NCBI GenBank assembly: GCA_947632735.1
Contig: CANRQG010000002.1
Coordinates: 1 to 37,722 of the forward strand
Direction: 5' to 3'
Length of the DNA: 37,722 bases
Source: an uncultured Bacilli bacterium
Lineage (GTDB): Bacteria; Bacillota_I; Bacilli_A; RF39; UBA660
The notes under the pieces were generated by a model, which saw nothing but the letters and a program-made list of their open reading frames with translations, did no database searches and was not told where the DNA came from. Position numbers and translations under genes: made by a program. Positions 3,191 through 28,061 of the stretch are shown piece after piece. Within the stretch, counting starts at the first letter, position 1; each line of letters starts with the position of its first letter.

Positions 3191-3319
3191 TTTCTCTTAA
3201 ATTTTACTATTTATTGTCTACTTTTCTTATAAGATAAAATAAATTATTTAAAAATATCTTTCAAAAACAAATTAATTAGGTTATACTTATTATAGTAAAA
3301 TAAGGAGCGTGTTTTAGTT

Positions 3320-4879
3320 ATGGTTATTAGAAAACCCTATGCTTTTTTAATAAAAAACTTCAAAAAAATACACATATTTTTGTTTTTATTATGCGCTTTT
3401 ATTTACTATAAAGTACTTCAAGTAAATGAATTTGTAAGTGAATTTATGCAACTAGGTAGTTATGACTCTTATAATGAACCAATTGCAAGATATATAAACT
3501 TCTTTATCTATCTAATTTTATTAGTTGTCGTAATTACTAGTTTTTTATTAATCTTACTTTTAAAAAGAAAAAATAAGCCCTGGAAGTTATACTTAATACC
3601 ATTTATAACATATTTTACTATTATGTTTATTTTTGCTTGGACAAGTAGTTTCTTTAATACTTATATGGGTGGAACAGAAACAACTAATATAAGAATGATA
3701 AGAGATATCCTGGGTATTCTTTCTTTCTTCCAATATCCTGTCTTTGTAATTCTTTTTATCAGAATTTTTGGAATAGACCTAAGAAAATTTAACTTTAATC
3801 AAGACCAAGAATATTTAGAATTAGCTAGTGAAGACCGTGAAGAATTTGAAATAAATATTGATATTGATAAAGAATCTTTCAAAAGAGCTTTTAAAAGATT
3901 AATTAGAAATATTAATTACTTATATCAGGAGCATAAACTAATTTGTAATACTATAATTGTTATTATTTTTGTTATTTTAATTAAAAATTTATATACTTTT
4001 GTTTTTGTTACTAATAGGTCATATAAGCAGGGTCAAACTTTCGACGCTAATGGCTATACAATAACCGTAAATAATAGTTATTATACTGATAAAGATTATA
4101 AAGGTGATGTCATTTCTGATAAGAATAATTTTGTTATTATTGATTTAACAATAAAAAATAATTCGGAAAAAAGAGAAATAAATTTAAGTAACTTCCACGT
4201 TATGAATGGTGTTAGTAACTATGCTACCACATCTAAAACATATGAAAGTGATTTTGAAGATTTAGGTAAAGTAATGGACTCTGTTCAAGAAGTAAGTCGT
4301 GATGCCTCCGTTCGAACAATAATTATTTTTAGAGTAGATAAAAAACTTCCTAAAAATCGTTTTGTTTTATATTATCAAGAATTAGAGGGAAATAATCATT
4401 TAAGAAAAATAAAATTAAAAATAAATGATTTATCACAAATTATAAAACACGACCCTATTGAATTTGGTAATAATTTAAAGATTAATTACAAAGATGAAAA
4501 AGAAGATATTATTTTTGATGGTTTCCAAATACTAGATACAGTTACTTATAGAACAAGACTTTGTAATACTACAAAATGTGAGGATAGTACTAGAGAATAC
4601 AAAGCTAAAACTAATGAAAAAATAATTTATTTAAGCTATTCTTCTTCAGAAATTGATAGCAATAATATGGTTGACTTTTCTACTGATTATGGTAAAATTA
4701 GATATAAAGATAGTAATGGTACTAAGACTATAAGAATGGCAAGTGCTGTTACATCAAAATACTTTGGTAAGTATCTATATTTAAAAGTTCCTAACGAGAT
4801 TATTGATGCCAAAGAAATAAGTCTTATTTATACAATAAGAAATAATGAGTATACCTATAATTTAAAAAAAGGAGCCTAG
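3320..4879 (+). CDS. polytopic membrane protein with extracytoplasmic beta-rich domain (DUF4352-like)
   Basis: 519 aa. It has about 4-5 N-terminal TM helices, a charged linker, another TM (aa ~205-228), then a region (GYTITVNNSYYTD...FVIIDLTIKNNSEKREINLSNFHV) resembling DUF4352-type Ig-like domains. It is the first gene after the ddl terminator. Confidence 0.5.
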   Translation: MVIRKPYAFLIKNFKKIHIFLFLLCAFIYYKVLQVNEFVSEFMQLGSYDSYNEPIARYINFFIYLILLVVVITSFLLILLLKRKNKPWKLYLIPFITYFTIMFIFAWTSSFFNTYMGGTETTNIRMIRDILGILSFFQYPVFVILFIRIFGIDLRKFNFNQDQEYLELASEDREEFEINIDIDKESFKRAFKRLIRNINYLYQEHKLICNTIIVIIFVILIKNLYTFVFVTNRSYKQGQTFDANGYTITVNNSYYTDKDYKGDVISDKNNFVIIDLTIKNNSEKREINLSNFHVMNGVSNYATTSKTYESDFEDLGKVMDSVQEVSRDASVRTIIIFRVDKKLPKNRFVLYYQELEGNNHLRKIKLKINDLSQIIKHDPIEFGNNLKINYKDEKEDIIFDGFQILDTVTYRTRLCNTTKCEDSTREYKAKTNEKIIYLSYSSSEIDSNNMVDFSTDYGKIRYKDSNGTKTIRMASAVTSKYFGKYLYLKVPNEIIDAKEISLIYTIRNNEYTYNLKKGA

Positions 4880-4882
4880 ACT

Positions 4883-6658
4883 ATGAATAAAAAGGTTAAA
4901 AAATATTTTAAAATTATTATAACAGTAGTAATTATTGCATTATTTGTTTGGTTTTTAATAATCTATCCTTTAGTATCTTTTAAAGGCTATGAAAAACAAA
5001 TGAAAGAAGCAGCTGAAAGATATTTTGTAATTAAACCAGGAGAACTTCCTACTGGTGAAAGAATAAAAACCATAACTTTACAAGATTTATTCTTTGGTTC
5101 ATATATAAAAGAAGATTTTTATATACCATATACTAAAGAACCTTGTTCACTAAAAGATAGTTGGGTAAAAGTTCGCAAAGAAAATGAAGAATATAAGTAT
5201 TACGTTTATTTAAAATGTGGTGTCTTATCCTCAACAGTTGACCATAAAGGACCAGTAATCACTTTAAATGGTGATGAAAAAATGACTATTACTAAGGGGG
5301 ATAAGTTTGAAGATCCAGGCATCAAAAGTGTTGTCGATAATAAAGATGGTAAAATAGATGTAAAGAAAGTAGAAACTGCTGGTACAGTTGATACTAGTAA
5401 AACAGGAACCTATACTATTACTTATACTGTTTTAGATAGTCTAAATAATAAAACAGAAGTAAAAAGAGAAGTTGAAGTAGTAGAAAGATTAAAATCAACT
5501 GTAAAAACTCTTTTAGGAGATAAAACAAGCTTTACTGGTGAACCTGAAAATAATTACATATATTTTTCTAATATGTTATTTAGAATAGTTGATATGGATA
5601 AAGATAATGTAAGAATAGTATCTAATACTGATATTTCTAATGTCAACTATAATGGTATTGAAGAATGGTTAGACGAAGTCTTTTATAAACACCTAAATAC
5701 TGCTTCTAAAAAACTAATTGTTGAAAATAAATACTGTAATATGAGTGTTAGTCCTGAAAATCTTACTGCTACGGAATGTAGCTCAACAACAGGTAACAAG
5801 AAAGTTTATATACCATCAATTGTTGATGTAAATAAGGCAGGAAATACTGTTGATAATTTTATGGAACCAGCTACAATGAGTTGGTTAGGAACAGCTAAAG
5901 ACAAGAATGAAGCCTACATTGTTAGAAATTTCTTTACAAATGACAATTCGGCATTCCTAAGCTTTGATAAAAAATATAACTTTGGCGTTAGACCAATTAT
6001 CACGATAGATGGTAACACTCTAATAAAAAGTGGTACAGGAACATATGATGATCCATATTATTTAGGAGATAGCAAGAAAGGAAAACCTAATTCTTTAGTT
6101 AGTGAAAGAGAAACTGGAGAGTATTTAAAAATTAGTGATTATCTATTTAGAATAATAGAAACAGATAATGATGGAACAACTAAAGTTATCGCTGAAAATT
6201 CATTAAGACAAGATGGTGCAAATATTAAAACTTCTTATGCAGATGATAATAAAATTTATAATCCTAAAGAAAAAGAAAATGTAGGATATTACATAAACAA
6301 TAGAGTTTCTGAATATATTGATACATCATATTTTGTTAATAAAAATATAACAGTACCAATTTACAAAGAAGATCCTGCATACAAAGAAGAAACTAGTACT
6401 AAGAAATATAAAGTTAAGTTTTCAGCTCCTAATACATATGATATGTTTAGTGCAGCAACAAATAATGAATCATATTGGTTAATTAATTCATCAAAAGATA
6501 ATAAATTGACTAATGGTATATCAGAAATAGGGGCTTATATGTATGGAGAATCAATTATGAATTCATTTGGTGTTAGAGTAGTTGGTTATTTGAAAAAAGA
6601 TGCTACAATCGTTAGTGGTAAAGGAACAAAAGATAGTCCTTATAAAATAAGCAAGTAG
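4883..6658 (+). CDS. membrane-anchored surface protein with an Ig-like (DUF5011-type) domain and two tandem copies of an unknown ~190-aa domain
   Basis: 591 aa with an N-terminal signal-anchor. The segment GPVITLNGDEKMTITKGDKFEDPGIKSVVDNKDGKID...GTYTITYTVLDSLNN looks like a DUF5011/bacterial Ig-like domain. Two repeats follow. Each starts Y(I/L)xxSxxLFRI(V/I)(D/E)xDxD and ends FGVRxxxxxxxxxxIxSGxGTxDxPYxx. Confidence 0.55.
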   Translation: MNKKVKKYFKIIITVVIIALFVWFLIIYPLVSFKGYEKQMKEAAERYFVIKPGELPTGERIKTITLQDLFFGSYIKEDFYIPYTKEPCSLKDSWVKVRKENEEYKYYVYLKCGVLSSTVDHKGPVITLNGDEKMTITKGDKFEDPGIKSVVDNKDGKIDVKKVETAGTVDTSKTGTYTITYTVLDSLNNKTEVKREVEVVERLKSTVKTLLGDKTSFTGEPENNYIYFSNMLFRIVDMDKDNVRIVSNTDISNVNYNGIEEWLDEVFYKHLNTASKKLIVENKYCNMSVSPENLTATECSSTTGNKKVYIPSIVDVNKAGNTVDNFMEPATMSWLGTAKDKNEAYIVRNFFTNDNSAFLSFDKKYNFGVRPIITIDGNTLIKSGTGTYDDPYYLGDSKKGKPNSLVSERETGEYLKISDYLFRIIETDNDGTTKVIAENSLRQDGANIKTSYADDNKIYNPKEKENVGYYINNRVSEYIDTSYFVNKNITVPIYKEDPAYKEETSTKKYKVKFSAPNTYDMFSAATNNESYWLINSSKDNKLTNGISEIGAYMYGESIMNSFGVRVVGYLKKDATIVSGKGTKDSPYKISK

Positions 6659-6666
6659 GTGTAAAA

Positions 6667-7482
6667 ATGAGCAATGCAAAGAAAACTAAAAGAAAATTAA
6701 AAAAACATTCTGTAGTGATATTTATTACTACAGTTCTTTGCTTGCTAGTAGGTGGCTTTTTGATTTTCTACTTAATAAATGAGAATAAGTTTTATCAAAT
6801 AGAAAGCAGAGTTGATAAGGTTGCTAAGAAAGTTAAAGAAGATAAAGCCAAAATAAAAACTGTTGGTTGGTTAAGAGTCCAGGGAACAAAAATAGATTAT
6901 CCAATTATCTATGCTCCTAACTATAACTTTACATATGATATGGAAGATTTTGTTTGGACCGAAACTGATTTTGAAAAGTTAAACAACATTATATATATAA
7001 AAGGACACAACATTTTAAATTTATCTAAGAATCCTTTGATAGCAGATAAATATCACAGTAGGTTTGAACAATTAATGAGTTTTACATATCTAGATTTCGT
7101 TAAAGAAAATAAATATATTCAGTATACCTTTAAAGGGAAAGAATATTTATATAAAATTTTTGCTATATCATACCCAAAAACTTCGGATTTAGATTTATAT
7201 AATAAAAGTAAGTATAGCAAGACAAAGTTAAAAAAATATATTGATGAATCATTAAAAAACAGTATATTTAAATTTGATGTAGATGTTAATAATAATGATA
7301 AAATATTATCTTTAGTAACGTGTACTAGAATGTTTGGTAATAACTATTCTTTCAAAGTAGATGCAAGAATGGTAAGAGAATTGGAACCTATAAAAAATTA
7401 TGATGTCAAAAAAACTAAAGAATATGATAAGGTTGATGAACAAATGAAAGGTGGAAGTTCGAATGAAAATGAAGAAGTATAA
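6667..7482 (+). CDS. srtB: class B sortase
   Basis: 271 aa with an N-terminal TM anchor. Motifs are GWLRVQGTKIDYPIIYA, IKGHN (His), GKEYLYKIFA, LSLVTCT (Cys219, TGT 7321-7323) and VDARMVRE (Arg). They are collinear with SrtB-type sortases as I recall them. Confidence 0.85.
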   Translation: MSNAKKTKRKLKKHSVVIFITTVLCLLVGGFLIFYLINENKFYQIESRVDKVAKKVKEDKAKIKTVGWLRVQGTKIDYPIIYAPNYNFTYDMEDFVWTETDFEKLNNIIYIKGHNILNLSKNPLIADKYHSRFEQLMSFTYLDFVKENKYIQYTFKGKEYLYKIFAISYPKTSDLDLYNKSKYSKTKLKKYIDESLKNSIFKFDVDVNNNDKILSLVTCTRMFGNNYSFKVDARMVRELEPIKNYDVKKTKEYDKVDEQMKGGSSNENEEV

Positions 7483-10400
7483 GAAAAGAATTTTAGGGGT
7501 TGTCATAACTTTATTCCTGGTTTTTGGAATCTTTAATTATGGTGATAATAATATCATCTTTACAGTAAAAGCAGCAGGAAAAAAATGTAATAATATGTGT
7601 GACAGCAATAGTTTTTCTTTAAATGTTCGTCTTAACTCTGATATTTCTAATCAAAATAAAAAGAGTACATATGAGATAAGTACTGCTAGAGGAATATTTT
7701 CTTTAGTTAGTGTTTCTAAAGAAAATGACGCCGTTGCAATAGAAAAAAGTGGAGCTAGGCAAGGACTTTACGTAATTACTCCTGACTTAATAAATGCTGC
7801 TAGTGGATGGGTACGTTCTTACCATTTTGTTCCAAATCCTAATGTGGCCGGAGCCACAATGGAAGAAAATACTACTGATTTACAACCAGGTAGTCCAATT
7901 TTTATAGAATTAGCAGATGTCGAAGCAGATAATGTTATTTTAGCATTTAAATTAAAAGATAATCCAGGTATTAACGGATGTGATCTTAACTGTACAGATA
8001 AAGACAATAATAAATATACGACTGAAGTAGAAATGAATGTTGCTTTAACAATGAATAATGTTTTGGTAAAGGTTGCTAAACCTAAAACAAAAACTAATAA
8101 AAGATATGATGATGTATGCCGAATAATTAGAGAAGATAGTTCAACTGCACTTAGCATTGCACTTGATAAAAATGATGGATTCAAATTATTAAATATGAAT
8201 GAAGACAGTATAAAAAAGTTAATGAGTAAGCGCTTAGATGATGATGAAGCTAAAAAATACTATGAAGAAAGTGTTCCTTACTGCTTTGATAAAAATGTTT
8301 ACAAAAACTATAGTAAAAAAACTGTTTTAAAGAAAATAAAGCGTGCTATCCAAAATCATTACAATAGAAATGATATCCTTAGTGCTGCTACATTAGATCC
8401 AAACTCAGCATTTGATCGTGCCTTTATTGATTCAAAGTATAGGGCTGGCGGTGTTGTAGATAAAAAAACTGGTGCTAATAGTAAAGCAGCTTGTACATCT
8501 AATGGAAGCCTAAATTCTGATCAACAAGCAAATTCTTGTGTTGAGATAAAGGGAGATTCATTTAGTGCGAGCGATATTAGGAGTTTAAAATGTGATGCTA
8601 ATTCATCAGAAGAATATAGAATAGGTGATGGAAATGGTAGCACTACTTACAACTTTTCAAACCTAAAATCATATTATACATATTCTAAAGAACCTGTGAC
8701 AGTTCAATATAAAAAATATAAAACTGGTAGCGATGCAGATTTTAATTGTAAAGCCAGTGGAAGAGATGATTGTAATTCAAGTGTAAGTAATTGGAATACG
8801 GCAACAGTATGTACTAGAACTTGTGAAGAAGCTGTTGATGTTGAATATGGTCCTCCAGTTGCCACTAAAGCAGGACTATGTTATGAATATAGAGTTAGAG
8901 TAACAAGCAGAATAAAATGTTATTCAGAAATTAACCCAGATGGTGGACCTAACGAGGATATCCCAGTTACAACACCAGTACCTTTCTGTATGCACGTTGC
9001 ACAAAAAGGATCAATAAGTTTTGCAGGACCTAATGAAAAATATGAGAAATGTATAAAAGAATGTGATAATGGTGAATATACACAAAAGTGTAGTAAGAAA
9101 TGCTACAACCAAGTATATGCGAGTGGAAATCGTAAATTAACTGTTGATTATGAAACTGATGCTACAAAGATGTTTGCAATAGATACTTTAAAAAAGAATG
9201 AATTTGTTGGCGTAAACAATACAAAATATAATGCTTGGAATGAAGATAATAACCCACATTACATAAATGATGGTGGACACATAACTTACATTGGTGCTTA
9301 TGCTAGATGGTACAAGGAAAATAAAGAAGGTAGAATTAATTCAACACACGGTAAAGTAAATGGATATGGCTATTTCCTTACTGAAGGAGTAGCAAGAAAG
9401 ATATATGATGTATCAAATGACTACTGTTCAGCTAATTGTGACTATGTTGGTGACAGTAATGGTTTTTATAATGATGAAGATGTTGAATATACTATAAAGA
9501 AAAACCAAGAATTATATGAGAATAAACTAGATGAATGTTCTGCTTTGGCAACTTGTACTAGTAAGACAGCAGAGTTTAAAATGACTACAAATTATAATAA
9601 TGGTTCAACTGATGTAACTATTGAATATCCTTCAAGTGGCAACAGTAAGGTTACTTCTGAAAAGGATAATATGCCTGCACAGTATCCAACATTAAAAGGT
9701 TGCAAAACTGGAAAAGATTGTGCTACAGATAGTGTAATTTTCGATTACGACGGATGTTATAGAACTCCAGACAACCCTGACTCTACAAAATATAAAGAAG
9801 GAGACAAATTCTATCAAACTGAAATAACTTATCCAGGTACTTGGATAAAAGCTAAGACCCAAGAAATATCTTATACAACTAAAGGTGATGGCTGGTATAA
9901 ACAAAATGAAAAATTCTGTTTGCCATTAAATGCTCAAGATGTTAACCAAAACTGGTGGATATGGCGAATGAATAAAACCGCAACTAAAGGTAATTATTAC
10001 TTTGAGGATAGCACTGGAAAAGATAATAAGTGTACAGTAATTGACACTAATGCTCAAAATACTACTTATGACCAATATTCAAATAGTGCAGCCATAGACT
10101 ATAATATTCACGCTATAATAAAGAGCTTTGGTCATTATGGCTGGAACTTCAACGTTGATTGCTTCTATGCCTTAAATGAAAAAGCAACTAAAGTAACTAA
10201 CAGTAGTGATAATGCTAATGCTTGTAAGACAGAGCCTAAAGTTAGATCAGTTGACCTTTCAAATCTATTCCCAAGTGAAGGATCTAACAATGCTGATGCT
10301 GCTCCAGACGCTACTAAGACAGGTAGAACACCAGGCTTCAACTGGACATCAGCCGCATCTATTTCACCAACAAAAGCAACAACAAATACTGGTACAAAAA

Positions 10401-10765: not shown

Positions 10766-10789
10766 TAAATAAGGAGGTAATGGTAAGAT

Positions 10790-11269
10790 ATGAATAAAGG
10801 AATGTTAACTGTAGGTATCATAATTTTAGCATTAATTGCGTTATTACTATTCAATGTACTTAATAATTATAGTACCGGTGGAGAATTAGATTATTACTTA
10901 TTAAAAGAAACAACCCAAGCAGCTATGATGGACGCCATTGATAAAACATACGAAAGAGATCAGGGCTTAACAAGAATGGACAAAGAGAAGTTCATTGAGA
11001 ACTTCCTTCGTCGCTTTGCCGATGGTGTTGATAATACTAGAACTTACGATATAAAATTCTATGATATCAACGAAATACCACCAAAAGTAAGTATCAAAGT
11101 AAACTCAGATACTGTCCTAAGTTTTGATGGTCAAGCTGCTCAAATTGATACCAGAATAAGTTCAATTGTTGAAGACTCTAACAAAGACGACCCTCTAATT
11201 GAAAGCAGCCTTAAAGACCCTAACAACGATATAGGTAAATCAATGGGTACAAAGAATACTGATAAATAA
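10790..11269 (+). CDS. small membrane-anchored protein, possible pseudopilin-like component
   Basis: 159 aa. MNKG is followed directly by a ~20-residue hydrophobic helix (a Gly-hydrophobic junction as in prepilins), then a soluble domain. It lies immediately upstream of the CpaB-like gene. AAGGAGG is present upstream. Confidence 0.35.
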   Translation: MNKGMLTVGIIILALIALLLFNVLNNYSTGGELDYYLLKETTQAAMMDAIDKTYERDQGLTRMDKEKFIENFLRRFADGVDNTRTYDIKFYDINEIPPKVSIKVNSDTVLSFDGQAAQIDTRISSIVEDSNKDDPLIESSLKDPNNDIGKSMGTKNTDK

Positions 11270-11289
11270 AAAGAAAGAAGGGAATTATA

Positions 11290-12105: not shown

Positions 12106-12133
12106 GATTTTATAGAATAAAAAGGGTGATATA

Positions 12134-15575: not shown

Positions 15576-15586
15576 AGGTGGAATAA

Positions 15587-17734: not shown

Positions 17735-17750
17735 AAAAGGAGGAATTAAA

Positions 17751-19562: not shown

Positions 19563-21725
19563 ATGACAGACTTAAAAAAAGCTGATTTTGTAAGTAACTT
19601 ATTTAGAAGTGTTGGTGCTTTCTTTGCTCGACCAGCATTTTGGTTACTTGGCATAGTTTATCAAATCTTTTTTAACATCTCAACAGCTGACTTATTTAAT
19701 AATGCAACTGTTTTAGGTTTTTATAAAAGAGTTCAGTTAATTATCGGTGTATTTATGATTTTTCAGTTGGCAGTCACTATATTAAAAGGTATAGTTAGTC
19801 CAGACGAAGCCTTTGGTTCAAAATCAGGCTTAGGTACAATAATTACTAGAGTTATTTTTGCTCTTGTTCTATTGACAGTTCTAGTACCAGTAAGTATTCC
19901 AGGAGCAACCACCGAATATGAAAGACAAATAAATAATAATGGTTTGCTTTTTGGTACCTTATATTCTTTGCAGCACCGATTATTATCGAATAATACAATT
20001 GGAAGATTAGTTTTAGGTACGTCAAGTGGCGCCACTAGTGATGGTAGTTCAAACACAGGTCTGACCGGTGCCGATAAACAGGCAGAAGAGCTGTCAAGAT
20101 CTTCCCGAATATTCACTTCAACAGTTCTAAAAGGTTTTGTTCGTATTAATTTAGTGCCTGAAGGAGATCGTCAGGATACATCAGATGGCAAAACTGAAGA
20201 AATGGATAATGATAATAGAGTTTGTAAAGATATCGATGATGATATCTTGTCAGCTTATACTAAAATAGATGCTGATCCAGGTGAAATACTTGACCTTATC
20301 AACGAAAAATGTACTATAAGTAAAAATGAGCCTTGGTATAACGGAAGTAGAGATAAATATGTCTTTGCCGAAAACGTTTTTATTGGAGCTATCGTTGGTT
20401 TTGTATTTGTATTTATTTTACTAAGTTTCTGTTTTGACATTGCCATTCGTGCTGTTAAATTAGCTGTTCTTAGAATAATTGCGCCAATTCCAATAATTAG
20501 TTATATGGACCCAAAAGGTGGTAAAGATGGTGCCTTAAATTCTTGGATAAAAGCTCTTACTTCAACTTATATTGATTTATTCGTAAGATTAGCTGTTATC
20601 TATTTTGTAATATATCTAATTCAAGATATGATAGTAAATGGTGTTGCTATGAACAACGCTAGTGGTATGGTTGGAATACTTTCTGTAATAGCTATTTGGA
20701 TAGGTCTATTTATGTTTGCTAAGGAAGCACCAAAGTTTATTCGTCAAGTTTTAGGTATGAAGGAAGACAGTGGCAAAGGAATATTCGGTGGTTTACGTGG
20801 AGCAGCAAATATAACATCAAGAGCTGCTGCCATAGGCGCAACAGCTCTTGGTGCAGTTGGTTCTTTCAATGCTTCAAGAAGAGCTAGTAAAATGGCCGAT
20901 GACGCAAATGGTGTTACTGAAAAACTAGAAAGTGCCAATTTTGCTAGAAAATTAATGAATAAAGGTAAACACGTAGTTGCCGGCATTTTGGGTGGAGCCG
21001 GTGAAGTAGCAACTGGTGTTAAAACAGCTGCCACTTCAAAAGAACAGCCTCTTTCAAAGACTATGGAAAATATTCAAAAGCGTAATGCTAAAGCTATTTC
21101 TAGAGGAGCAGCAGGCTCTACAACATTTGGGCGTGCTGGAACTAGTATGTATAGATTAGTTGTTGGTGAAGATAAATATGAACAAGAGGCAAGACAAGTT
21201 GAACATCTTAAAGGTATTTCTACAACAGGAAAAGATTTGAAAGAATACCTAGAAGATCGTGCTGTAAAAAAAGGTGGTTCATTAAAGTTGGCTGGCTATA
21301 GGACCGATGCAACAGGAAAAAGAATTGGATTTACTACTACATTAGATGAATGGAAAAATGCATTTGGTATTGCTCAACAACGTGGTAATGCAACCTTCAC
21401 TGTTGCTGGTCAAACCTTTGAAACATTTGGAAGTGAAGCGAAAAGTATTGATGGACAATTAGTAACAGCTGCCGGAAAACAATGGGCTAACATAGAAAAA
21501 AGCAAAGGTGCTAGTATGGATCCGGCACTTAGACAAAAAGTTGAATCATTTGAAGATTCAGGTGGAGCAGCTCAACTTGCTAATCCTGCCGATATATTTG
21601 ATTCTGATGCTGTTAAGAATGTTGCTGTTAAAGCCGGTGGTGATGCTGATAGAATTGAAAGATCTGCAGCTTACCAAAAACATAAGGCAGATCACGGAGC
21701 TACTGGCGGTAATAAGGGAGTGTGA
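19563..21725 (+). CDS. VirB6-like (TcpH/PrgH-position) polytopic T4SS channel protein with long Ala/Gly-rich C-terminal domain
   Basis: 720 aa with multiple TM helices across aa ~20-400 and a hydrophilic ~300-aa C-terminus. It lies immediately upstream of the PrgI-like and VirB4 genes. The call is by architecture and synteny. Confidence 0.45.
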   Translation: MTDLKKADFVSNLFRSVGAFFARPAFWLLGIVYQIFFNISTADLFNNATVLGFYKRVQLIIGVFMIFQLAVTILKGIVSPDEAFGSKSGLGTIITRVIFALVLLTVLVPVSIPGATTEYERQINNNGLLFGTLYSLQHRLLSNNTIGRLVLGTSSGATSDGSSNTGLTGADKQAEELSRSSRIFTSTVLKGFVRINLVPEGDRQDTSDGKTEEMDNDNRVCKDIDDDILSAYTKIDADPGEILDLINEKCTISKNEPWYNGSRDKYVFAENVFIGAIVGFVFVFILLSFCFDIAIRAVKLAVLRIIAPIPIISYMDPKGGKDGALNSWIKALTSTYIDLFVRLAVIYFVIYLIQDMIVNGVAMNNASGMVGILSVIAIWIGLFMFAKEAPKFIRQVLGMKEDSGKGIFGGLRGAANITSRAAAIGATALGAVGSFNASRRASKMADDANGVTEKLESANFARKLMNKGKHVVAGILGGAGEVATGVKTAATSKEQPLSKTMENIQKRNAKAISRGAAGSTTFGRAGTSMYRLVVGEDKYEQEARQVEHLKGISTTGKDLKEYLEDRAVKKGGSLKLAGYRTDATGKRIGFTTTLDEWKNAFGIAQQRGNATFTVAGQTFETFGSEAKSIDGQLVTAAGKQWANIEKSKGASMDPALRQKVESFEDSGGAAQLANPADIFDSDAVKNVAVKAGGDADRIERSAAYQKHKADHGATGGNKGV

Positions 21726-21730: not shown

Positions 21731-22039
21731 GTGAATTATTTAATTCCTGCTAATACTAAGAAAGGACAATTAATACTAGGTATCTTTAGGCCATTCGACT
21801 TAATCCTCTTTAGTTGTGGTATCTTAGCAACCATTATCTTGCTTGCTTTCTTACCACTTTCATCAACACTAGTTACTATACTAGTCTTAAGTCCTGCTAT
21901 CGTAACTGGCTTTCTCGTTATGCCAGTTCCATATTATCATAATATGCTAAATATTATCGTTGAACTGTATGAGTTTTTGACTAATAGACAAACATATCGT
22001 TGGAAGGGATGGTGTTATAGATATGGCCAAAAAAAATAG
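21731..22039 (+). CDS. PrgI/VirB3-like small membrane protein
   Basis: 102 aa with a GTG start. It has two adjacent TM helices after the short N-terminal IPANTKKGQLILGIFRPFD. It lies directly upstream of and overlaps the VirB4 N-terminal ORF. Confidence 0.5.
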   Translation: MNYLIPANTKKGQLILGIFRPFDLILFSCGILATIILLAFLPLSSTLVTILVLSPAIVTGFLVMPVPYYHNMLNIIVELYEFLTNRQTYRWKGWCYRYGQKK

Positions 22040-22571
22040 TAGTGGTTTTACCGAAGATTGGTTACCTTTGCGAGCAATTCAAAATAATATGATTATCACT
22101 AAAGATAACCAAAAAGTTAGTGGTGTTAAAATAACCCCTCGAAATATTTTTATTCTTGATAATGATATGCAAAATAATATTTTAATTAGTTTAAGAAATT
22201 TTTATAATACTTTGGACTTTGAATTTTGGTTAATAGTAGCGGATAGACCAGTAGATATTTCCGTTTATATGTCACAAATGCAACTATTACTTAATGAAAC
22301 TTCCTCACCAGCTATTAGAAAATTAATTATGCAAGACATTGACAAAGGAGAAACATTTATTCGTAACAATGTTGTTGATACAGAATATTACTTTATGTTT
22401 AAAACCAAAGATGAAGATTTATTGCAAAAAAGAATAAGAATGATGATAAATGGGTTAGCGCAGTGTGGACTTAACGCATCCCAAATTAGTAACTCTGATT
22501 TAAGACTCGTTCTTGAAAACTTCCTAAACGGTGGAAATACAACTGAATTTGGGACGGTGATGCCAGTATGA
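22023..22571 (+). CDS. virB4: VirB4-family ATPase, N-terminal domain encoded as a separate ORF
   Basis: 182 aa. EDWLPLRAIQNNMIITKDNQKVSGVKITPRNIFILD matches the typical N-terminus of Firmicutes VirB4 (PrgJ/TcpF-like) proteins from memory. It ends in an ATGA overlap with the next ORF. Confidence 0.55.
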   Translation: MAKKNSSGFTEDWLPLRAIQNNMIITKDNQKVSGVKITPRNIFILDNDMQNNILISLRNFYNTLDFEFWLIVADRPVDISVYMSQMQLLLNETSSPAIRKLIMQDIDKGETFIRNNVVDTEYYFMFKTKDEDLLQKRIRMMINGLAQCGLNASQISNSDLRLVLENFLNGGNTTEFGTVMPV

Positions 22572-24358
22572 GTACAGGTTTAAGAAGTCAAATTGCGCCA
22601 AAAGGCCTACATTTTTCACCAAGTGATTTTATAATTAGTGATAAATACGCAACCATTATGACCGTTGTATCATATCCAAAATACATTATGCCCGGTTACC
22701 TATCATCACTAACTAATATGTCTGGTATTAAAGTTGTTGTTAAACATATACCAGTTCCTTTCCAAGAAATGTCAAAAATGCTTAATAAACAAGTAGCTGA
22801 ATTAAAAGAAAGATACCAAAATGAAAGAGACCAAACCGTTCGTGAAAGAGTAAGACAAGATGCCGAAAGTTTGGAATACTTTACCTCTATGCTTGCTGGT
22901 AGTCAAGCTAGAATATTCGACTTCCAAATGCACATTATGATAACAGCCGATACTAAAGAAGAATTGGAATTAAAGAAAGTAAATGTCAAAAACTACTTAG
23001 ATGCTATGGAACTAAGAGCCGTTTCTCTACGTTTTGAACAAGAAAAAGTCTTAAAATCCATTATTCCAATTTTCCCATCACAAGATGTTGAACAAAGAAT
23101 TGGAACCCCAATTCCCTCTGTTACTATTTCCGCTATGTATCCTTTTATCTTTGATAGTATAAAAGACCCAGGACTTTCAACTTTACTTGGTGTTGACTTT
23201 TCTGGCGGTGTAATTTTATTCAACCAATTCTTATATAAAATAAGAAAAGAAAATAACCGTAACAATGCCAATATGATTATTCTTGGTACATCAGGTTCCG
23301 GAAAATCAACTGCGGCAAAACTTATGTTAAGAACTCACATTAGAAACGGTTGTCAAATAGTTATTGTCGACCCCGAAGATGAATATCGAGAAATAGCAAG
23401 AACCTATGGAGGCGATATCGTCGACATAGCTAAAGGTGGCGAATTTGGTTTAATTAACCCTCTAGAAGTTGTCATCGATGCTGATGAAGAAGAAATAAAA
23501 CAGGGCCTTGGCTATACCGTATTAACAAGAACACTTCAATTTCTTAAAGCCTTTATGAAATATTATGACCCATCTATTGAAGAAGATGTCTTAACAATGT
23601 TTAGTGAAATAGTACAAGATACTTATAAACGTTTTGGAATAGACTTCAATACCGATTTTTCTAGATACACATCAAGTGATTATCCAACCTTTAGTGATGT
23701 TTATGCCACTATTAGAGGTCGCTTAATGTCAATGACAGAACAAACCCAAGAAAGAGATATTATGGAACGTCTAGAACTAAAAGTAAGACCAATTACTAAA
23801 GAACTAAAATTCTATTTTGATGGTCATACAACAATTAGACGTGATAGTGACTTTATGGTCTTTAACATCAAAGAACTAATGAATAGTGACTCTACAGTTA
23901 GAAATGCCTTATTCTTTAACGTTTTAAAATATGCTTGGGGTCTATGTCTTGATTATAATGTTGATACCGTATTAATGATTGATGAAGCCCACGTCCTTTT
24001 AGGTGACAACAACGCTCTAGGAGCAGACTTCCTAGCTCAAGTTCAAAGACGTGCTCGTAAATACAATACTGGTACAATTATCATTACTCAACAACCAAGT
24101 GACTTTGCTGACCAAGCTGTTATTACTCAGGGTAAAGCTATTTTCGATAACTCATCTTATTACCTAGTAATGGGTCTTAGAAAACAAGCTGTTGAAGACT
24201 TGGCTTTATTAATAGATTTAAATGATAGTGAAAAAGAAAGTATTAAACACTATTCTCAGGGCGAAGCTTTATTCGTCTGTGGAAATAGACGTATGAGAAT
24301 AAATATTGCAGTTACCCAAGAAGAATTAGATTCCTTTGGTAGTGGTGGAGGACTATAA
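22568..24358 (+). CDS. virB4: VirB4-family T4SS ATPase, middle and C-terminal ATPase domains
   Basis: 596 aa. Motifs are Walker A GTSGSGKST (nt 23285-23311) and Walker B VLMIDEAH (from nt 23969). The segment IISDKYATIMTVVSYPKYIMPGYLSSL is typical of the VirB4 middle region. The combined length with 22023..22571 is 778 aa, the size of a full VirB4. Confidence 0.85.
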   Translation: MSTGLRSQIAPKGLHFSPSDFIISDKYATIMTVVSYPKYIMPGYLSSLTNMSGIKVVVKHIPVPFQEMSKMLNKQVAELKERYQNERDQTVRERVRQDAESLEYFTSMLAGSQARIFDFQMHIMITADTKEELELKKVNVKNYLDAMELRAVSLRFEQEKVLKSIIPIFPSQDVEQRIGTPIPSVTISAMYPFIFDSIKDPGLSTLLGVDFSGGVILFNQFLYKIRKENNRNNANMIILGTSGSGKSTAAKLMLRTHIRNGCQIVIVDPEDEYREIARTYGGDIVDIAKGGEFGLINPLEVVIDADEEEIKQGLGYTVLTRTLQFLKAFMKYYDPSIEEDVLTMFSEIVQDTYKRFGIDFNTDFSRYTSSDYPTFSDVYATIRGRLMSMTEQTQERDIMERLELKVRPITKELKFYFDGHTTIRRDSDFMVFNIKELMNSDSTVRNALFFNVLKYAWGLCLDYNVDTVLMIDEAHVLLGDNNALGADFLAQVQRRARKYNTGTIIITQQPSDFADQAVITQGKAIFDNSSYYLVMGLRKQAVEDLALLIDLNDSEKESIKHYSQGEALFVCGNRRMRINIAVTQEELDSFGSGGGL

Positions 24359-24385: not shown

Positions 24386-26749
24386 ATGTCATATGAAAGT
24401 AGACGAAATAATAACGAAATTAATACGCCTAAAACCCATAATAAGACTAATAATACAAGCCTACCTTCACCTAAAGAAAGAGAAAGAAGACAACGAGAAA
24501 AATCTTCATCCAAAGCCATTAAAGGAGCCGCAACAGGAGCCGCTAATGCCTTTGCTGGCCCTGTAGGTGGCAAAGCCGTTGACTTAGCTTCAAAAACAAA
24601 AACAGGTCAACAACTTTTAAATAAAGGTGGCCAAGTTTTAAATAAAATGCCTGGTGTAGGAAAAACTTTAAATAAAATAGATAATCTGACTAATAAAGCT
24701 AAACCTATACCATCTAAAGAAAATAATAATATTAATCAAGCTACTCCCACTAATAATAACCCTAATTCTGATGAACAAAATAATATTCCTAATCAAAATA
24801 ATAATATAGAAAACAAAGGCCCAGGCTATCCACCATCTCCAGTTGCCGAACAAAGTGATTCAGAAGCTGATACAAACTCTTCTCCTCGAATAGCCGGTCT
24901 AGGACCTTTTTCAAGAAAAAATAATTCCAAGGATAAAGAAAATTCTAATGAAGAAGAAACAACCACTGCTCCAGGAAAAGTAGCTGGTCGTTTTATGATG
25001 TCAATTGGTGCTAAAATAGTTCTCCTAGTCGCTCCAATAGTTATCATAATTGTTATAATTGTTTCCTTAGTTGGTAGTGTAGTAGGTGGTGTTGGTGACT
25101 TTGTTGACGCCTTAGGCGCAATGTTTACCGCTGGTGGCGAAACTGGTGATGTTGAAGTTGCGGCCCCTACAAAAGAACAAGAAGATTTTTATAATCGCAT
25201 AAATGATGTCAAATTAGAATATCAAGCTAATGGTAAAAGTGTTGACCCTTTAAAAATTGCCGCTGTCTATCGTATCTTTTTCTCAGAAAAAGTTAAATAT
25301 GGTTATAAAGATATGACCGAAGAAATAATCAAAGATATTGCCGACTGTATGTTTATGGGAAATAGTTACGATGAAGACGTTTTTAAAGAAAATCTAACTG
25401 AATATCTAATACCTAAATATTATCCTAAATCATCTGATGATGAAAGAGAAGAAATAGTTAATGAAATTTTTGAATATATGGAAAGTTACTATAGCCTTAT
25501 TGGTGAAGAAACTGATTCTGCTTGTGCTTCCGTTGGAACTTGTATCTATGATATAAAAGGCTTTTACATACCTGTTACAGGTAATATAAATAAAAGTATG
25601 AACATTTCTAATTTAATGGTTCGTCTAATGGAATGTGGTCCTCCCTATGGAACAGGAAATGATAATACCCCAATAGACCAGCCTCTAGTTCCATTTGAAG
25701 ACTACATTATGGGTGTAGCTTACGGTGAAGTTTATACGACCTATGACGATGAAGCCATCAAAGCCCAAATGGTCGCCGCTAGAAGTTATGCTCTATCCCG
25801 TGCAACCTCTGTTGGTAACGCAGGCGGCAAAAAATTAGAACAAGAAGATGGCGAGTGGATATTACAAATATCATCTTGTGTTGCCGACCAAGTCTTTTGT
25901 AATGTTGATGAAGGCTGTTCCTATATGGGTGGTGGCGATGGTCAAGGTGGTATTGTTCGTAGTGGTATTATTCCTGGTGCTGTTAGAACTATGCCAGCCT
26001 TGCCAGCTGACCATAAATTACGTGCTTTAGCCGCTGAAGTTCAGGGCGAAGTATTAGTAAATAATCAGGGTAACATTATGTATACCGGTTTTGGTAGTGG
26101 AACCCAACGAAAAATGAATGAGTTAGCTCAAAATGGTTTAAATTATCGGCAAATTTTAATGGAACTTTACGGCAGTGCTGGAGCAACTGACATCGAAAAA
26201 GGAAATTGTAATACTGGCGACTCTTGTAGTTCTTTCTCATCATCAGGACCTTATGCTAGCTGGAAACAATATACTGGTCCGTGGACCGATGTTCCTCTAG
26301 GTAAAAGTGACCAAACAATTAAGAGTGCTGGTTGTTTAGTCACATCAGTTGCTATGCTAATCGCTAAAAGTGGCGTACCTACCAAAATCGAGGACTTTAA
26401 CCCAGGAACTTTCGTTGAATTCTTAAATAAAAACAATGGCTTTTCAGGTGCCAACTTCCTTTGGGCTAGTGTCTCTTCAGTTGCGCCATCCTTTACATAT
26501 CAAGGAAAAGTAAACGTCACTGGAAAAACGAAAAAAGAAAAAAAGAATATCCTAGAAGGACTTCTTCAAAGTGGTAACTATGTAGTAGCGGAAGTAAAAG
26601 GTTCAACAGGTCAGCACTGGGTTGCGATAGATGGCATATCTGCTGATGGAAAAATTTTAATGATGGACCCAGGTAGTGATGCAACCGATATGTGGGGTCA
26701 ATATTCGTGGAAAAATACCAGCCAATTTTCTTATTTTAGTGTTAATTAA
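24386..26749 (+). CDS. membrane-anchored bifunctional cell-wall hydrolase (SpoIID/LytB-like domain plus papain-like Cys peptidase), VirB1/PrgK analog
   Basis: 787 aa. It has a disordered N/K-rich N-terminus and a TM (aa ~205-235). The segment DYIMGVAYGEV...EAIKAQMVAARSYALSRA (A460 at nt 25763) resembles the SpoIID/LytB motif. The C-terminal KSAGCLVTSVAM (Cys650, nt 26333) and GQHWVAIDG (His744, nt 26615) suggest a Cys/His peptidase. Confidence 0.6.
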   Translation: MSYESRRNNNEINTPKTHNKTNNTSLPSPKERERRQREKSSSKAIKGAATGAANAFAGPVGGKAVDLASKTKTGQQLLNKGGQVLNKMPGVGKTLNKIDNLTNKAKPIPSKENNNINQATPTNNNPNSDEQNNIPNQNNNIENKGPGYPPSPVAEQSDSEADTNSSPRIAGLGPFSRKNNSKDKENSNEEETTTAPGKVAGRFMMSIGAKIVLLVAPIVIIIVIIVSLVGSVVGGVGDFVDALGAMFTAGGETGDVEVAAPTKEQEDFYNRINDVKLEYQANGKSVDPLKIAAVYRIFFSEKVKYGYKDMTEEIIKDIADCMFMGNSYDEDVFKENLTEYLIPKYYPKSSDDEREEIVNEIFEYMESYYSLIGEETDSACASVGTCIYDIKGFYIPVTGNINKSMNISNLMVRLMECGPPYGTGNDNTPIDQPLVPFEDYIMGVAYGEVYTTYDDEAIKAQMVAARSYALSRATSVGNAGGKKLEQEDGEWILQISSCVADQVFCNVDEGCSYMGGGDGQGGIVRSGIIPGAVRTMPALPADHKLRALAAEVQGEVLVNNQGNIMYTGFGSGTQRKMNELAQNGLNYRQILMELYGSAGATDIEKGNCNTGDSCSSFSSSGPYASWKQYTGPWTDVPLGKSDQTIKSAGCLVTSVAMLIAKSGVPTKIEDFNPGTFVEFLNKNNGFSGANFLWASVSSVAPSFTYQGKVNVTGKTKKEKKNILEGLLQSGNYVVAEVKGSTGQHWVAIDGISADGKILMMDPGSDATDMWGQYSWKNTSQFSYFSVN

Positions 26750-26760: not shown

Positions 26761-27537
26761 ATGCGCAAAAAAAGAACTTATATCATATTGTTAATTATTC
26801 TAGTAGCTTATTTTTTAGTTCTCTATCTTTTTATTGGAAAAGATAATCTAAAAAAAGAGTCTTTTTCCACAACTATTATGGTAGGGGATAATACCGTTTG
26901 GGCTCTTTCCGGTAAAAGATGGCTAAATATTACTAAACAAAGCTCTATTGATAGCTTAAACTGGCAGAAATTTACTGTCTTTGTCGATAATGAGAACCTA
27001 GGTAGAAACTATGTTTGGCACGATGATAAGTGGTATATTTTCGATAAAAATAAAAATGCTGTTGTAAAAACTGGTAAATTTCTTGCTTATCAAGCTAATT
27101 ATAAAATAAACGTTTTAAACTATGAAGAAGAAAATATTACTGACCTAACTTATGTAAATAAAGTTCTAGAAGAAAATAATCTGTCTTCACCGTTCACAGC
27201 CAGTAGTAAAACAACCCTTGACATTGATAATGACAATATCAAAGAAGACTTTTACATAATTAGTAATGCCTTTGCTGACGAATTTGTCCCTGATACCTTA
27301 TTTTCCATTGTCTTTATGGTTAAAAATGACAAAATCTATTATATTTATAAAGATATTTCCACTAATGACTTAGACTATAAGGAATGTAAACCATACTTTA
27401 ATTACTTTTTAGATATTGATGATGATAAAACTTATGAAATGATTCTTAGTTGTGGTAGATATAGCATTAAAGAAGAAATTAATATGCTCTATAGCTATAC
27501 CAAAGATGGTTTTAAAATAATTATCTCTAATCAATAA
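26761..27537 (+). CDS. N-terminally anchored hypothetical protein in the PrgL/TcpC (VirB8-like) position
   Basis: 258 aa with a single N-terminal TM and a beta-rich ectodomain. It follows the hydrolase gene as prgL follows prgK in pCF10. I saw no motif-level support. Confidence 0.3.
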   Translation: MRKKRTYIILLIILVAYFLVLYLFIGKDNLKKESFSTTIMVGDNTVWALSGKRWLNITKQSSIDSLNWQKFTVFVDNENLGRNYVWHDDKWYIFDKNKNAVVKTGKFLAYQANYKINVLNYEEENITDLTYVNKVLEENNLSSPFTASSKTTLDIDNDNIKEDFYIISNAFADEFVPDTLFSIVFMVKNDKIYYIYKDISTNDLDYKECKPYFNYFLDIDDDKTYEMILSCGRYSIKEEINMLYSYTKDGFKIIISNQ

Positions 27538-27542
27538 AATTC

Positions 27543-27571
27543 TTGCTAAAAATAAAATAGTAGTGTATAAT
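27543..27571 (+). promoter_or_regulatory. candidate sigma-A promoter
   Basis: TTGCTA (27543-27548), a 17-nt spacer, then TATAAT (27566-27571). Confidence 0.5.
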
Positions 27572-27596
27572 AAGGCTCGATTAGGGGGCTAAATAT

Positions 27597-28061
27597 ATGA
27601 GTAAAGAAAATTTACCTGAATTAAAAGAATTATCTAATGACCAAAAAGACGAGTTAATAGAAACATTACACGAAGCCAATAAACAACTTTATAAAAGAGG
27701 TGTCTTAGTAATTGTTTGTAGTGGTCTTCTTGCCTTAGTCGGAACACATTATGGCTATAAAGAAGGAAGAAAACAAACAGAAACTGATAATTACTTATCA
27801 GCTATAAAAACCTATAATCTTCTTCAAGATAAAATCGACGCTAACTTAACTTTTCCTTTTTCCGATATTTTAAGTCAATTTAATGACTATGAGTACTACT
27901 TAATGACTAATAAAGGAGAAGAAACAGCTGAAGCAAATAAAGCACTTAATGAGTATTTCCAATTAGTTAGTCTTTATAATGAAGAATTTTTAGAATTATT
28001 TTCTTCTAATATTTCAGAAGAACAAGATGCTACCTTAGTAAAGATATATCAAAATAAGTAA
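27597..28061 (+). CDS. hypothetical single-pass membrane protein
   Basis: 154 aa with an AGGGGG RBS and one central TM ([19 protein letters not shown]). I recognised no family. Confidence 0.5.

Follow-up and report, generated by a model that had tools for sequence, protein, structure and literature searches.

What is a long run of filament and type IV secretion system (T4SS) genes doing in the chromosome of an uncultured Bacilli bacterium, and is it an apparatus of its own or a relative of something already known? The run lies on contig CANRQG010000002.1 (assembly GCA_947632735.1), of which we analyzed a stretch of 37,722 nucleotides (nt), called the window here, with a G+C content of ~30%. 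An initial annotation had described a co-directional run of about 24 + strand open reading frames (ORFs) between ddl (1924-3153) on one side and rpmG (28123-28287) on the other, and the ORF positions bear this out. The conserved cluster within the run spans 3320-27537. Judged by gene order and protein similarity, this cluster is a homolog of the transfer (mating-pair-formation) operon of pLS20/pAW63-type plasmids. We think it likely that it is a vertically inherited, chromosomal version of such an operon that has been domesticated as a contact-dependent export machine.

The window holds 21 genes of the cluster, and 23 are present in four related species. They come in three parts. Surface/adhesin genes with a sortase-family enzyme are followed by a Tad-like module (DUF5411, CpaB, a CpaF/FlaI-like ATPase, two platform-position proteins, two pilin-like proteins, and g12) and then by T4SS genes (two VirB2-like pilins, VirB6, a VirB3-position protein, a split VirB4, a wall hydrolase, and a bitopic beta-protein). 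Family assignments were made with Pfam and NCBIfam profile searches of the window proteins. The cluster genes are as follows.

g01, 3320-4879, + strand: polytopic membrane protein with an extracellular DUF4352 domain (Pfam DUF4352, 2e-7)
g02, 4883-6658, + strand: N-terminally anchored surface protein (Bact_surface_Ig-like, 3e-21; DUF6273, 1.5e-4)
g03, 6667-7482, + strand: sortase-family transpeptidase, class B-like (Pfam Sortase, 3e-7)
g04, 7451-10765, + strand: secreted Cys-rich protein of 1104 amino acids (aa), no family match
g05, 10790-11269, + strand: DUF5411 protein (4e-44) with a pilin-like N terminus (MNKG/MLTVGII...)
g06, 11290-12105, + strand: CpaB/RcpC-like (SAF-type) bitopic protein
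g07, 12134-13600, + strand: secretion-type hexameric ATPase of the CpaF/FlaI/VirB11 group (T2SSE, 3e-28)
g08 and g09, 13620-15331, + strand: polytopic membrane proteins of 300 and 269 aa in the TadB/TadC platform position
g10 and g11, 15408-16051, + strand: 55 aa pilin-like and 154 aa pseudopilin-like proteins, no family match
g12, 16069-17094, + strand: cytoplasmic protein of 341 aa, no family or PDB match
g13, 17151-17459, + strand: first VirB2-like pilin, a small protein of 102 aa with two transmembrane (TM) helices
g17, 19034-19537, + strand: second VirB2-like pilin; it has a signal peptide, and its N-terminal region is variable
g18, 19563-21725, + strand: VirB6-like polytopic channel protein; its C-terminal domain is long and variable
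g19, 21731-22039, + strand: two-TM protein of 102 aa in the VirB3/PrgI position, no family match
g20, 22023-22571, + strand: 182 aa, first part of VirB4 (Mbov_0397 model positions 98-277, 5e-16)
g21, 22568-24358, + strand: 596 aa, second part of VirB4 (Mbov_0397 model positions 295-891, 1e-106)
g22, 24386-26749, + strand: membrane-anchored bifunctional wall hydrolase in the VirB1 role (SpoIID, 1.8e-9; Peptidase_C39_2, 3e-5)
g23, 26761-27537, + strand: bitopic protein whose extracellular domain is all-beta; the cluster ends with it in the window; no family match

The Tad and T4SS family calls of the initial annotation held in part. Profiles agreed with it on the superfamily of the ATPase and on CpaB, VirB6, VirB4, the hydrolase, and the VirB2-like pair, and they did not support TadB, TadC, TadZ, or VirB8. 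The ATPase g07 is certainly a member of the T2SSE/secretion ATPase superfamily. It matched the VirB11 model at 2e-34 (119 bits, cut-off 250) and the TadA model at 3e-30 (105.6 bits, cut-off 373), and against PDB sequences it scored 74.5 bits with FlaI, 72.6 with CpaF, and 54.5 with VirB11. It has >7000 homologs, the best 120 of which are at 68-91% identity, one of them named TadA of “MAG: Bacilli bacterium.” For g06, Pfam RcpC was just over its cut-off (7e-7; 29.6 bits against 28.8) and NCBIfam pilus_cpaB was under its own (1.5e-7). The channel protein g18 matched TrbL_4 over the cut-off (1.7e-8) and pLS20_p028 (2.8e-9) and Mbov_0396 (7.5e-8) under theirs. The VirB3 call for g19, which has a median identity of 65%, was made by position only, PrgI-family/DUF5592 genes being found there in plasmids.

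VirB4 is encoded by two overlapping ORFs, g20 and g21, with a match of 2.8e-54 to the CD1110 family and with P-loop_TraG and AAA_10 over their cut-offs. The split was kept in every locus that reaches g20/g21 and in the plasmids, so it is not a frameshift; we had considered a frameshift or pseudogene and ruled it out on the conservation of the 182 + 596 aa split everywhere. The protein g23 had been assigned to the VirB8 position. Its AF2 model (pLDDT 92.8) consists of a TM helix and an all-beta domain, and Foldseek found no VirB8 or other fold for it in the PDB (best E 0.019, TM-score 0.21). Thus, g23 is not VirB8-like, as it does not have the NTF2 fold. It has 167 homologs at E <= 1e-5, and those listed are ~259 aa long.

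Where else does such a combination occur? A tblastn search of plasmids found VirB4 relatives (~29% identity) and CpaF/VirB11-family ATPases (28-36%) together in Bacillus thuringiensis, B. subtilis natto, and Clostridium perfringens, and the ATPase alone also matched plasmids of Enterococcus faecium and Listeria grayi. In pNARUSE and the C. perfringens plasmid, the order is adhesin, ATPase, two polytopic proteins, small TM proteins, VirD4, a p028 VirB6-like protein, DUF5592, an ORF of ~190-205 aa, VirB4, and hydrolase. In pNARUSE, VirB4 and the hydrolase are separated by a 208 aa protein and the hydrolase is followed by one of 269 aa, and in the C. perfringens plasmid VirB4 is preceded by a further 135 aa ORF. 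The operon of pBMB68 (pAW63 type) is also co-directional and encodes a MobP3 relaxase, VirD4, TrbL, PrgI, a 227 aa ORF with a DUF87 VirB4, an NlpC/P60 protein, an SLH protein, an 851 aa protein, DUF5411, SAF/CpaB, an AAA_31 ATPase, a secretion ATPase, two unnamed proteins of ~300 aa, and DUF4320. Hydrolases stand at the g22 position on the plasmids too (NlpC/P60; lytic transglycosylase/C40), and the position of g04 is taken by a large surface protein in pNARUSE (a thioester adhesin), pBMB68, and the C. perfringens plasmid. The premise that Gram-positive T4SSs lack a VirB11-class ATPase, that Tad loci stand alone, and that the present unit is undescribed is contradicted, as far as gene content goes, by these three plasmids. 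The original observation is broader than thought and less unique, as the pairing of a Tad-like module with a T4SS already exists on plasmids.

The closest published description concerns the pLS20 family, whose conjugation operon comprises genes 34-55 (Val-Calvo et al. 2021, PMC8557374). Gene 37 is listed there as a putative VirB11 and genes 38-47 as unknown, and no pilus homologs are said to be encoded (PMC8557374). As seen in pNARUSE, this family has the same gene order as the cluster, starting with the adhesin and running over the ATPase module, VirB6, VirB3, and VirB4 to the hydrolase; in pLS20, the ATPase (gene 37) is accompanied by two polytopic proteins (38/39), a VirB3-position protein of ~100 aa, an ORF of ~190 aa with a VirB4 of ~630 aa, and a protein of ~260 aa. 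Homology with the cluster was detectable for the two ATPases only (36% identity for the secretion ATPase and 23% for VirB4). Unlike the cluster, pLS20 is a plasmid with a MobP2 relaxase, a VirD4 in the middle of the operon, and a VirB8-like gene 53, and no sortase, DUF4352, DUF5411, or CpaB gene is annotated on it.

Sequence similarity reaches further in pBMB68/pAW63, which shares with the cluster DUF5411 (on the plasmid, beside the ATPase module), SAF/CpaB, the ATPase, two polytopic proteins, TrbL/VirB6, PrgI, the split VirB4, and the hydrolase. Direct homology was found for the N-terminal part of VirB4 (24%, 2e-12), its C-terminal part (29%), CpaB (g06, 32% identity to the SAF-domain protein), the ATPase, and g09 (hhalign 89%, E 2e-6, to the protein in the same position). 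For VirB4, CpaB, and g09, no other plasmid gave better matches. The plasmid differs in its order, with the T4SS genes ahead of the filament genes, and in having a MobP3 relaxase and VirD4 at the head and a canonical AAA_31 (TadZ-like) ATPase beside the secretion ATPase. In the literature on Gram-positive conjugation, we found no paper that recognizes the Tad-like nature of the filament half.

Having placed the cluster among plasmid transfer operons, we examined how widely and in what manner it is kept on chromosomes. A scan with one genome per species found an ATPase relative in at least 488 species representatives. We fetched 80 loci, from metagenome-assembled gut genomes of human, mouse, rabbit, ruminants, and chicken. 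Their records are labeled uncultured Bacilli, Tenericutes, Mollicutes, Erysipelotrichaceae, “Mycoplasma sp. CAG:877,” and Candidatus Faecimonas, names which we take to correspond to the GTDB order RF39. RF39 is an entirely uncultured gut order (PMC9606305), and in the literature on RF39 and T4SS, pili, or conjugation, we found no description of the cluster. What we found no description of is the presence of such a machine in the core genome throughout a large, uncultured lineage of the gut.

In tblastn searches with the window proteins, g01-g21 were in the same order in every fetched locus reaching far enough, with one exception, L032, where an insert interrupts the cluster. The Tad-like and VirB4 modules co-occurred in every locus long enough to show both, and the proposal of a chromosomally fixed apparatus that joins a pilus-type module and a VirB4 channel as a unit is supported. 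Its position as an island between ddl and rpmG does not. The usual site is after greA, which was the immediate upstream gene in 47 of 67 loci, and before rhodanese-VTT-RmuC, and murF/ddl lay upstream of the cluster in none of the fetched related loci. The ddl/rpmG flanks are a species-specific rearrangement, which rules out a horizontally acquired island at that site.

Median pairwise identities were calculated among 46 species, with GreA alongside the cluster proteins.

GreA, 88%; VirB4 C-terminal part (g21), 86%
g08, 78%; g09, 77%; g10, 75%; VirB4 N-terminal part (g20), 75%
ATPase (g07), 73%; CpaB (g06), 68%
g02, 49%; g11, 47%; g01, 46%; g17, 44%
sortase (g03), 39%; VirB6 (g18), 37%; g04, 32%

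In eight of nine cluster proteins, divergence rose with GreA divergence (Spearman 0.31-0.53; 0 of 300 permutations reached such values). The exception was the ATPase (r = 0.09), where the tail of variable length disturbs the alignment. Taken together, the tracking of GreA and the pattern of identities are, at the level of sequence, the signature of a vertically inherited cluster with a constrained core and fast-evolving exposed parts. Because of this contrast between core and surface, the surface proteins are candidates for partner recognition.

The initial annotation had reported no coupling ATPase. There is indeed no VirD4 or VirD4 remnant in the window. However, virD4 lies directly 3' of g23 in four related species (L092, L093, L094, and L095), where it encodes a protein of 733-790 aa with T4SS-DNA_transf, TrwB_AAD_bind, and TraG-D_C domains. 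It is followed by a DUF6273 protein of ~400 aa, a paralog of g02 (24% identity by tblastn; DUF6273, 2.5e-6), and beyond this, in three of the four, by a rhodanese, a VTT-domain protein, and, where the contig reaches, RmuC. The rhodanese-VTT(-RmuC) genes are downstream in L093-L099, and the contig of the closest relative, L092, stops earlier. VirD4 had 7672 matches, the best 120 at 70-86% identity; judged by these matches, the family is as large and as conserved as that of the ATPase.

The species of the window appears to have kept its virD4 elsewhere. Five samples hold the VirB4 of the window at 100% identity. Two of them, ERZ27249363 and ERZ27249368, also contain a VirD4 (P0243) with 86% identity to that of the closest relative, and the coverage in these two was 4.4-4.6x for virD4 and 4.1-4.9x for VirB4. 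The displaced virD4 and g02 paralog lie between a penicillin-binding protein gene and rhodanese-VTT-RmuC. In the junction alignment, the last ~12 nt of g23 (TTAATCAATAATAG) are retained upstream of the displaced virD4, while the window retains TCTAATCAATAA at the g23 junction and then diverges. The simplest reading is that a rearrangement at the g23 stop codon moved g01-g23 to ddl/rpmG and left virD4 at the ancestral site. The missing coupling ATPase is a local artefact, given the place of virD4 next to g23 in relatives and the g23 remnant beside the displaced copy. In another strain of the species (L001, 9272-10558, minus strand), a gene of 428 aa lies exactly between g23 and g24, at the 27537/27597 breakpoint of the window; it has an N-terminal helix-turn-helix-like region and no Pfam match and may be an insertion sequence (IS)-type element. 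A promoter-like site ahead of virD4 (TTTACA-17-TATAAT) is conserved in all species aligned (L092 10783-10837, L095, and L096), and virD4 probably has a transcript of its own.

Contig L096, which carries the displaced virD4, also encodes at 4139-5335 two proteins of ~181 aa with an N-terminal methylation (prepilin) motif. These two proteins make it probable that the genome encodes a type IV pilin/ComG-like system apart from the cluster and, with it, a prepilin peptidase.

We then asked whether the genes of mobility accompany the machine. There is no relaxase or integrase in the window by Pfam and NCBIfam, and the earlier statement to that effect stands for the related loci as well. No homologs of the MobP2/MobP3 relaxases or of primases were found in the chromosomal loci (97 loci, 1.82 Mb). 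Other MOB (mobilization) classes and integrases were absent from the precomputed Pfam tables of the loci, a search that covered the loci and not whole genomes. The window has no tRNA genes and no flanking direct repeats of the whole cluster beyond chance (longest match 13 nt, shuffle maximum 14), both as stated originally. The cluster is without an accompanying relaxase, integrase, or attachment repeats.

If the preferred reading is right, the whole cluster would encode a single export machine that spans the envelope and depends on contact. In it, a short fiber through the wall would be built by the ATPase, the platform-position proteins, and the small pilins with the help of the hydrolase, and this fiber would present the variable adhesins and surface proteins. 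VirB4, VirB6, and the VirB3-position protein would form the membrane channel, and VirD4 would recruit a cytoplasmic substrate and pass it to a neighboring cell. As for the substrate, we put at about even the chance that it is a non-conjugative cargo, protein or another macromolecule, that serves cell-cell interaction, as has been proposed for Patescibacteria. Transfer of DNA, either independent of a relaxase or with one acting in trans, seems to us somewhat unlikely, and DNA uptake improbable, the conserved VirD4 of the system making it less likely. Saccharibacteria need their T4SS to grow on a host bacterium, and by analogy this lineage might even depend on the machine for an obligatory physical contact with bacterial or host cells, an idea that we regard as rather speculative. 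If it were true, the Tad-like half would build a pilus-type organelle, the first for a monoderm conjugation-class T4SS outside Patescibacteria. Partner specificity would be set by the fast-evolving adhesins, and the lineage's resistance to isolation would be explained, which would point to co-culture partners.

Several observations weigh against the preferred reading. The virD4 contigs belong to this genome only probably, by co-occurrence, coverage, and the junction remnant. For g08 and g09, position, topology, and weak transitive links make TadB/TadC identity no more than possible. Neither g10 nor g11 has the Flp G/XXXXEY motif, there being no EY at +5/+6, and no prepilin peptidase (TadV/CpaA; Peptidase_A24) was found among the window proteins, the rest of the genome being outside that search. 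A relaxase could be encoded far from the cluster. Finally, two independent insertions and a terminator-like hairpin at the g13/g17 boundary, described below, indicate that the two halves are separate transcription units, which could work independently.

How do other explanations fare? Conjugation of the chromosome itself, in which a distant or unrecognized relaxase would nick the chromosome for transfer as in mycoplasma chromosomal transfer, is unlikely in our estimate though it has real points in its favor: the best VirB4 and VirB6 models are the Mycoplasma integrative and conjugative element (ICE) families Mbov_0397 and Mbov_0396, the coupling protein is complete with DNA-transfer domains, and the architecture equals that of working conjugative plasmids. 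No locus has a relaxase within 10 kb, however, and conservation at the level of a housekeeping gene, at a fixed position over hundreds of species, would be unusual for a gene-exchange device; the fast-evolving surface parts fit the recognition of a partner or host equally well. A stand-alone two-machine apparatus without a coupling protein, a unique unit serving DNA uptake or another task apart from conjugation, strikes us as quite improbable. The window by itself would suit it, having no VirD4, relaxase, integrase, or tRNA, and T4SS-based DNA uptake without VirD4 does exist in ComB of Helicobacter pylori. Yet VirD4 is conserved in four relatives and apparently still at the ancestral site in this species, the same unit is found on known conjugative plasmids, and the same-sample contig with two N-methyl prepilin-type proteins hints at a separate competence pilus.

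We see little prospect, too, for two unrelated neighboring machines, an adhesive Tad-type pilus and a separate T4SS. The hairpin after g13 and the strong promoter of g13 itself fit such a division, as does foreign DNA that was twice inserted at the g13/g17 boundary with the halves still together, and stand-alone DUF5411-CpaF operons are known in Clostridia (PMC9523054). What argues for a single system is that the halves are adjacent and in the same order in every related locus showing both, that they also co-occur in transfer operons on unrelated Bacillus and Clostridium replicons, and that the “Tad” side includes a T4SS pilin, the VirB2-like g13. Least probable by far is a decayed or domesticated ICE remnant without function. 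It would account for the absence of mobility genes, for a cluster that is here split from virD4 and interrupted by a nuclease cassette, and for the IS-like gene at the g23 junction of another strain, but ~80 species have every ORF intact, identities of 73-86%, comparable with GreA, are seen for VirB4, the ATPase, and the platform-position proteins, and the conserved VirB4 split is no frameshift.

The nearest parallel to a domesticated transfer machine is in Patescibacteria, which have chromosomal, mostly relaxase-less T4SSs derived from MPF_FATA (Quinonero-Coronel et al. 2025, PMC12102498; PMC12857230). These have arrays of VirB2-like pilins and are essential for epibiotic growth in Saccharibacteria (PMC12102498, PMC12857230), and a T4SS review describes them as unique among monoderms, required for growth, and with potential conjugative pili (PMC12857230). 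Like the cluster, they are of the monoderm type, chromosomal throughout a lineage of uncultured bacteria, and equipped with VirB2-like (PF18895) pilins and a type IV coupling protein. They differ in belonging to another phylum, in that no Tad-like ATPase/platform or sortase/adhesin genes are described for them, and in that essentiality has been shown there. By this comparison, the cluster may be a second example, beside Patescibacteria, of a lineage-wide monoderm chromosomal T4SS with pilus potential. It would be a T4SS conserved like a housekeeping gene, with two VirB2-like pilins and a complete filament-assembly module, in prevalent and entirely uncultured gut Bacilli, and it may reveal the way in which they deal with other cells. 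In the other direction, the comparison places the “unknown” pLS20-type genes 38-45 in a Tad-like filament module, which gives a testable idea of how Gram-positive conjugation machines cross a thick wall.

Other known systems resemble parts of the cluster. The Mycoplasma ICE (Mbov_0396/Mbov_0397; CDS16/CDS17) supplied the best VirB4 model (357 bits) and one of the two best VirB6 models, at scores under the equivalog cut-offs. Unlike the cluster, these ICEs are mobile and have a single-ORF VirB4 (894-position model), no wall hydrolase, and no described filament module; mycoplasma chromosomal transfer is reviewed in PMC12857230. A predicted DUF5411-CpaF-PilC secretion operon of 8-9 genes is reported from the gut Firmicutes Roseburia, Ruminococcus, and Eubacterium (Miller et al. 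2022, PMC9523054), with DUF5411 beside a CpaF-type ATPase and a platform protein. It stands alone, with no T4SS half reported, and its function is predicted only. The Tad/Flp pilus of Aggregatibacter and Caulobacter has in common with the cluster a CpaF-like ATPase, CpaB/RcpC, two platform-position proteins, and small pilins; the cluster differs in having no Flp G/XXXXEY motif, no TadV peptidase in the locus, and a T4SS in the same cluster, and all of its curated NCBIfam matches (CpaB, TadA, and VirB11) were under their cut-offs. In Gram-negative bacteria, the IncI R64 thin pilus and PAPI-1 likewise combine a type-IV-filament machine with VirB4/VirD4 in DNA transfer (PMC12857230). Unlike the cluster, they use a type IVb pilus in diderm hosts and belong to mobile elements with relaxases.

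The TadB, TadC, and TadZ calls found no significant profile match in g08, g09, and g12. Mean column identity for g08/g09 is 83-85%, and the family is narrow (243 representatives at E <= 1e-3 among 1.8 billion proteins). Pfam searches gave no direct T2SSF match for either protein. The alignments of g08, g09, and g12, used as profiles against PDB sequences, gave chance matches only. By hhalign, g08 had no similarity to g09 in a test of TadB/TadC paralogy, and nothing was found between g08 and its counterpart on the C. perfringens plasmid. Foldseek with the g08 model (pLDDT 80.7) gave no match at E < 1, a search in which helical membrane models may match poorly. On the positive side, the plasmid proteins in the g08 position align with T2SSF over the whole domain at sub-threshold values (0.01 and 0.19), 1 of 22 remote g08 homologs matches T2SSF at 2.3e-5, and the topology agrees with a platform, with an all-helical model and a central soluble bundle between TM helices (g08/g09). 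For g12, only a P-loop-like segment (GFKNVTDHAGATTL, without the Lys) aligns with the AAA_31 ATPase of pBMB68, at an hhalign probability of 5.6%; g12 is possibly a degenerate ParA/MinD-type (TadZ-like) protein.

In both g10 and g11, a hydrophobic helix comes after a short, charged leader whose last residue is Gly. Among 76-77 orthologs, conservation of their N termini (MKAATGELNLTVITLIAIAAV and MRDAxGG...) is 90% or higher. The N terminus of g05 is invariant among orthologs, and these three proteins have near-invariant N termini of the class III signal type. The VirB2-like pilins g13 and g17 are paralogs. T4SS_pilin was matched by 44 of 74 g13/g17 orthologs (best, 1.4e-7), with g17 at 0.004 across the full profile. 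Since each has two invariant Cys, one near the N terminus of the mature part and one near the C terminus, the sequences suggest a disulfide or other covalent link between pilin ends.

Among the four surface genes, g01 is the first of the conserved cluster, with an ortholog in 71 loci, and heads the run wherever examined. The sortase-family g03 matched the srtB model at 2.5e-16, under its cut-off, and the GHN and TCTR motifs with His and Cys are kept in 76 orthologs. No LPXTG-type/sortase sorting signal was found in the C-terminal tails of g01, g02, g04, g11, and g17. The Cys-rich g04 is the most variable protein of the cluster. These first four genes, together with the nuclease cassette, the VirB4 split, and the place of g24 outside the cluster, had been overlooked.

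The signals for transcription and the inserted DNA lie mainly around the pilin genes.

Promoter-like site, 15347-15375, + strand: TTGTGA-17-TATAAT with extended TG, 10/12, ahead of g10
Promoter, 17099-17128, + strand: perfect TTGACA-18-TATAAT, 12/12, ahead of g13
Terminator-like hairpin, 17466-17490, + strand: AGCAAAGCTTTGCT and then T10, directly 3' of g13
Inserted nuclease cassette, about 17474-18986, + strand: ~1.5 kb with a YhcG/DUF1016 PDDEXK nuclease and a 51 aa ORF
g24, 27597-28061, + strand: 154 aa, one TM helix and a helical region, no family match

The internal promoters proposed at 15347 and 17099 both match the consensus, and across the window promoter-like sites were not enriched (100 found and 100.5 expected from shuffles). 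The true start of g13 is the ATG at 17151, preceded by a strong ribosome binding site (AAGGAGAGG), and gene calls of the same species also give 102 aa. Intergenic gaps across 3320-15331 are -32 to +28 nt, as tight or overlapping as originally described, and a single long transcript of this segment is possible. Since g13 has its own promoter, a hairpin follows it, and virD4 has a separate promoter, the cluster probably comprises at least three or four transcription units. A “good” terminator claimed after ddl (3163-3190) turned out to be a weak A/T-rich hairpin that the terminator scan did not call.

The nuclease of the cassette (17751-18770) matched YhcG_C at 1e-59 and DUF1016_N at 3e-33. The cassette was inserted at the T-run of the g13 terminator, and an imperfect 17-nt direct repeat surrounds it (left copy TTGCTATTTTTTTTTTC, right copy TTGCTATTTCCTTTTTC); in the closest relative (locus L009), the repeat occurs once and the gap measures 170 nt. 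By tblastn of the window proteins, the nuclease and the 51 aa ORF were in no other species' locus. The cassette is not part of the machine. In another species, a different gene cluster is inserted at the same g13/g17 boundary (L032, 15735-20745). It encodes four paralogous proteins of ~199 aa with TasA/SipW-type N termini, a 444 aa protein, and a 379 aa multi-TM protein with a C-terminal signal-peptidase-I-like domain, and that locus does not extend to the T4SS half.

The ORF run had been taken to continue as one unit to 28061. Its ORFs do, and the conserved cluster stops at 27537, because g24 has its own promoter (TTGCTA-17-TATAAT, region 27544-28061) and no homolog in any other species' locus. 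The left flank of the cluster consists of a murF-like ligase gene and ddl, ending at 3153, and the right flank, from 28123, of rpmG, efp, rpsO, and pnp.

Some minor observations concern the ATPase gene and the remainder of the window. The C-terminal tail of g07 (13214-13600, residues ~360-488) is of low complexity and rich in Pro, Gln, Thr, and Val, and its length varies strongly between species, with homologs of 432 to 625 aa; such variation is unusual for this ATPase family. In a metagenome contig of the same species (L003, 111-1001, minus strand), the ATPase gene ahead of g08 is for the most part replaced by an ORF of 296 aa. This ORF matches the window in its first 30 codons only (13567-13478, reverse), and it may be a strain rearrangement or a chimeric assembly. 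At 33987-36551, two adjacent proteins with Tim44-like domains come before an SPFH/Band-7 protein that has a zinc ribbon at its C terminus, a trio that looks conserved and has no relation to the cluster.

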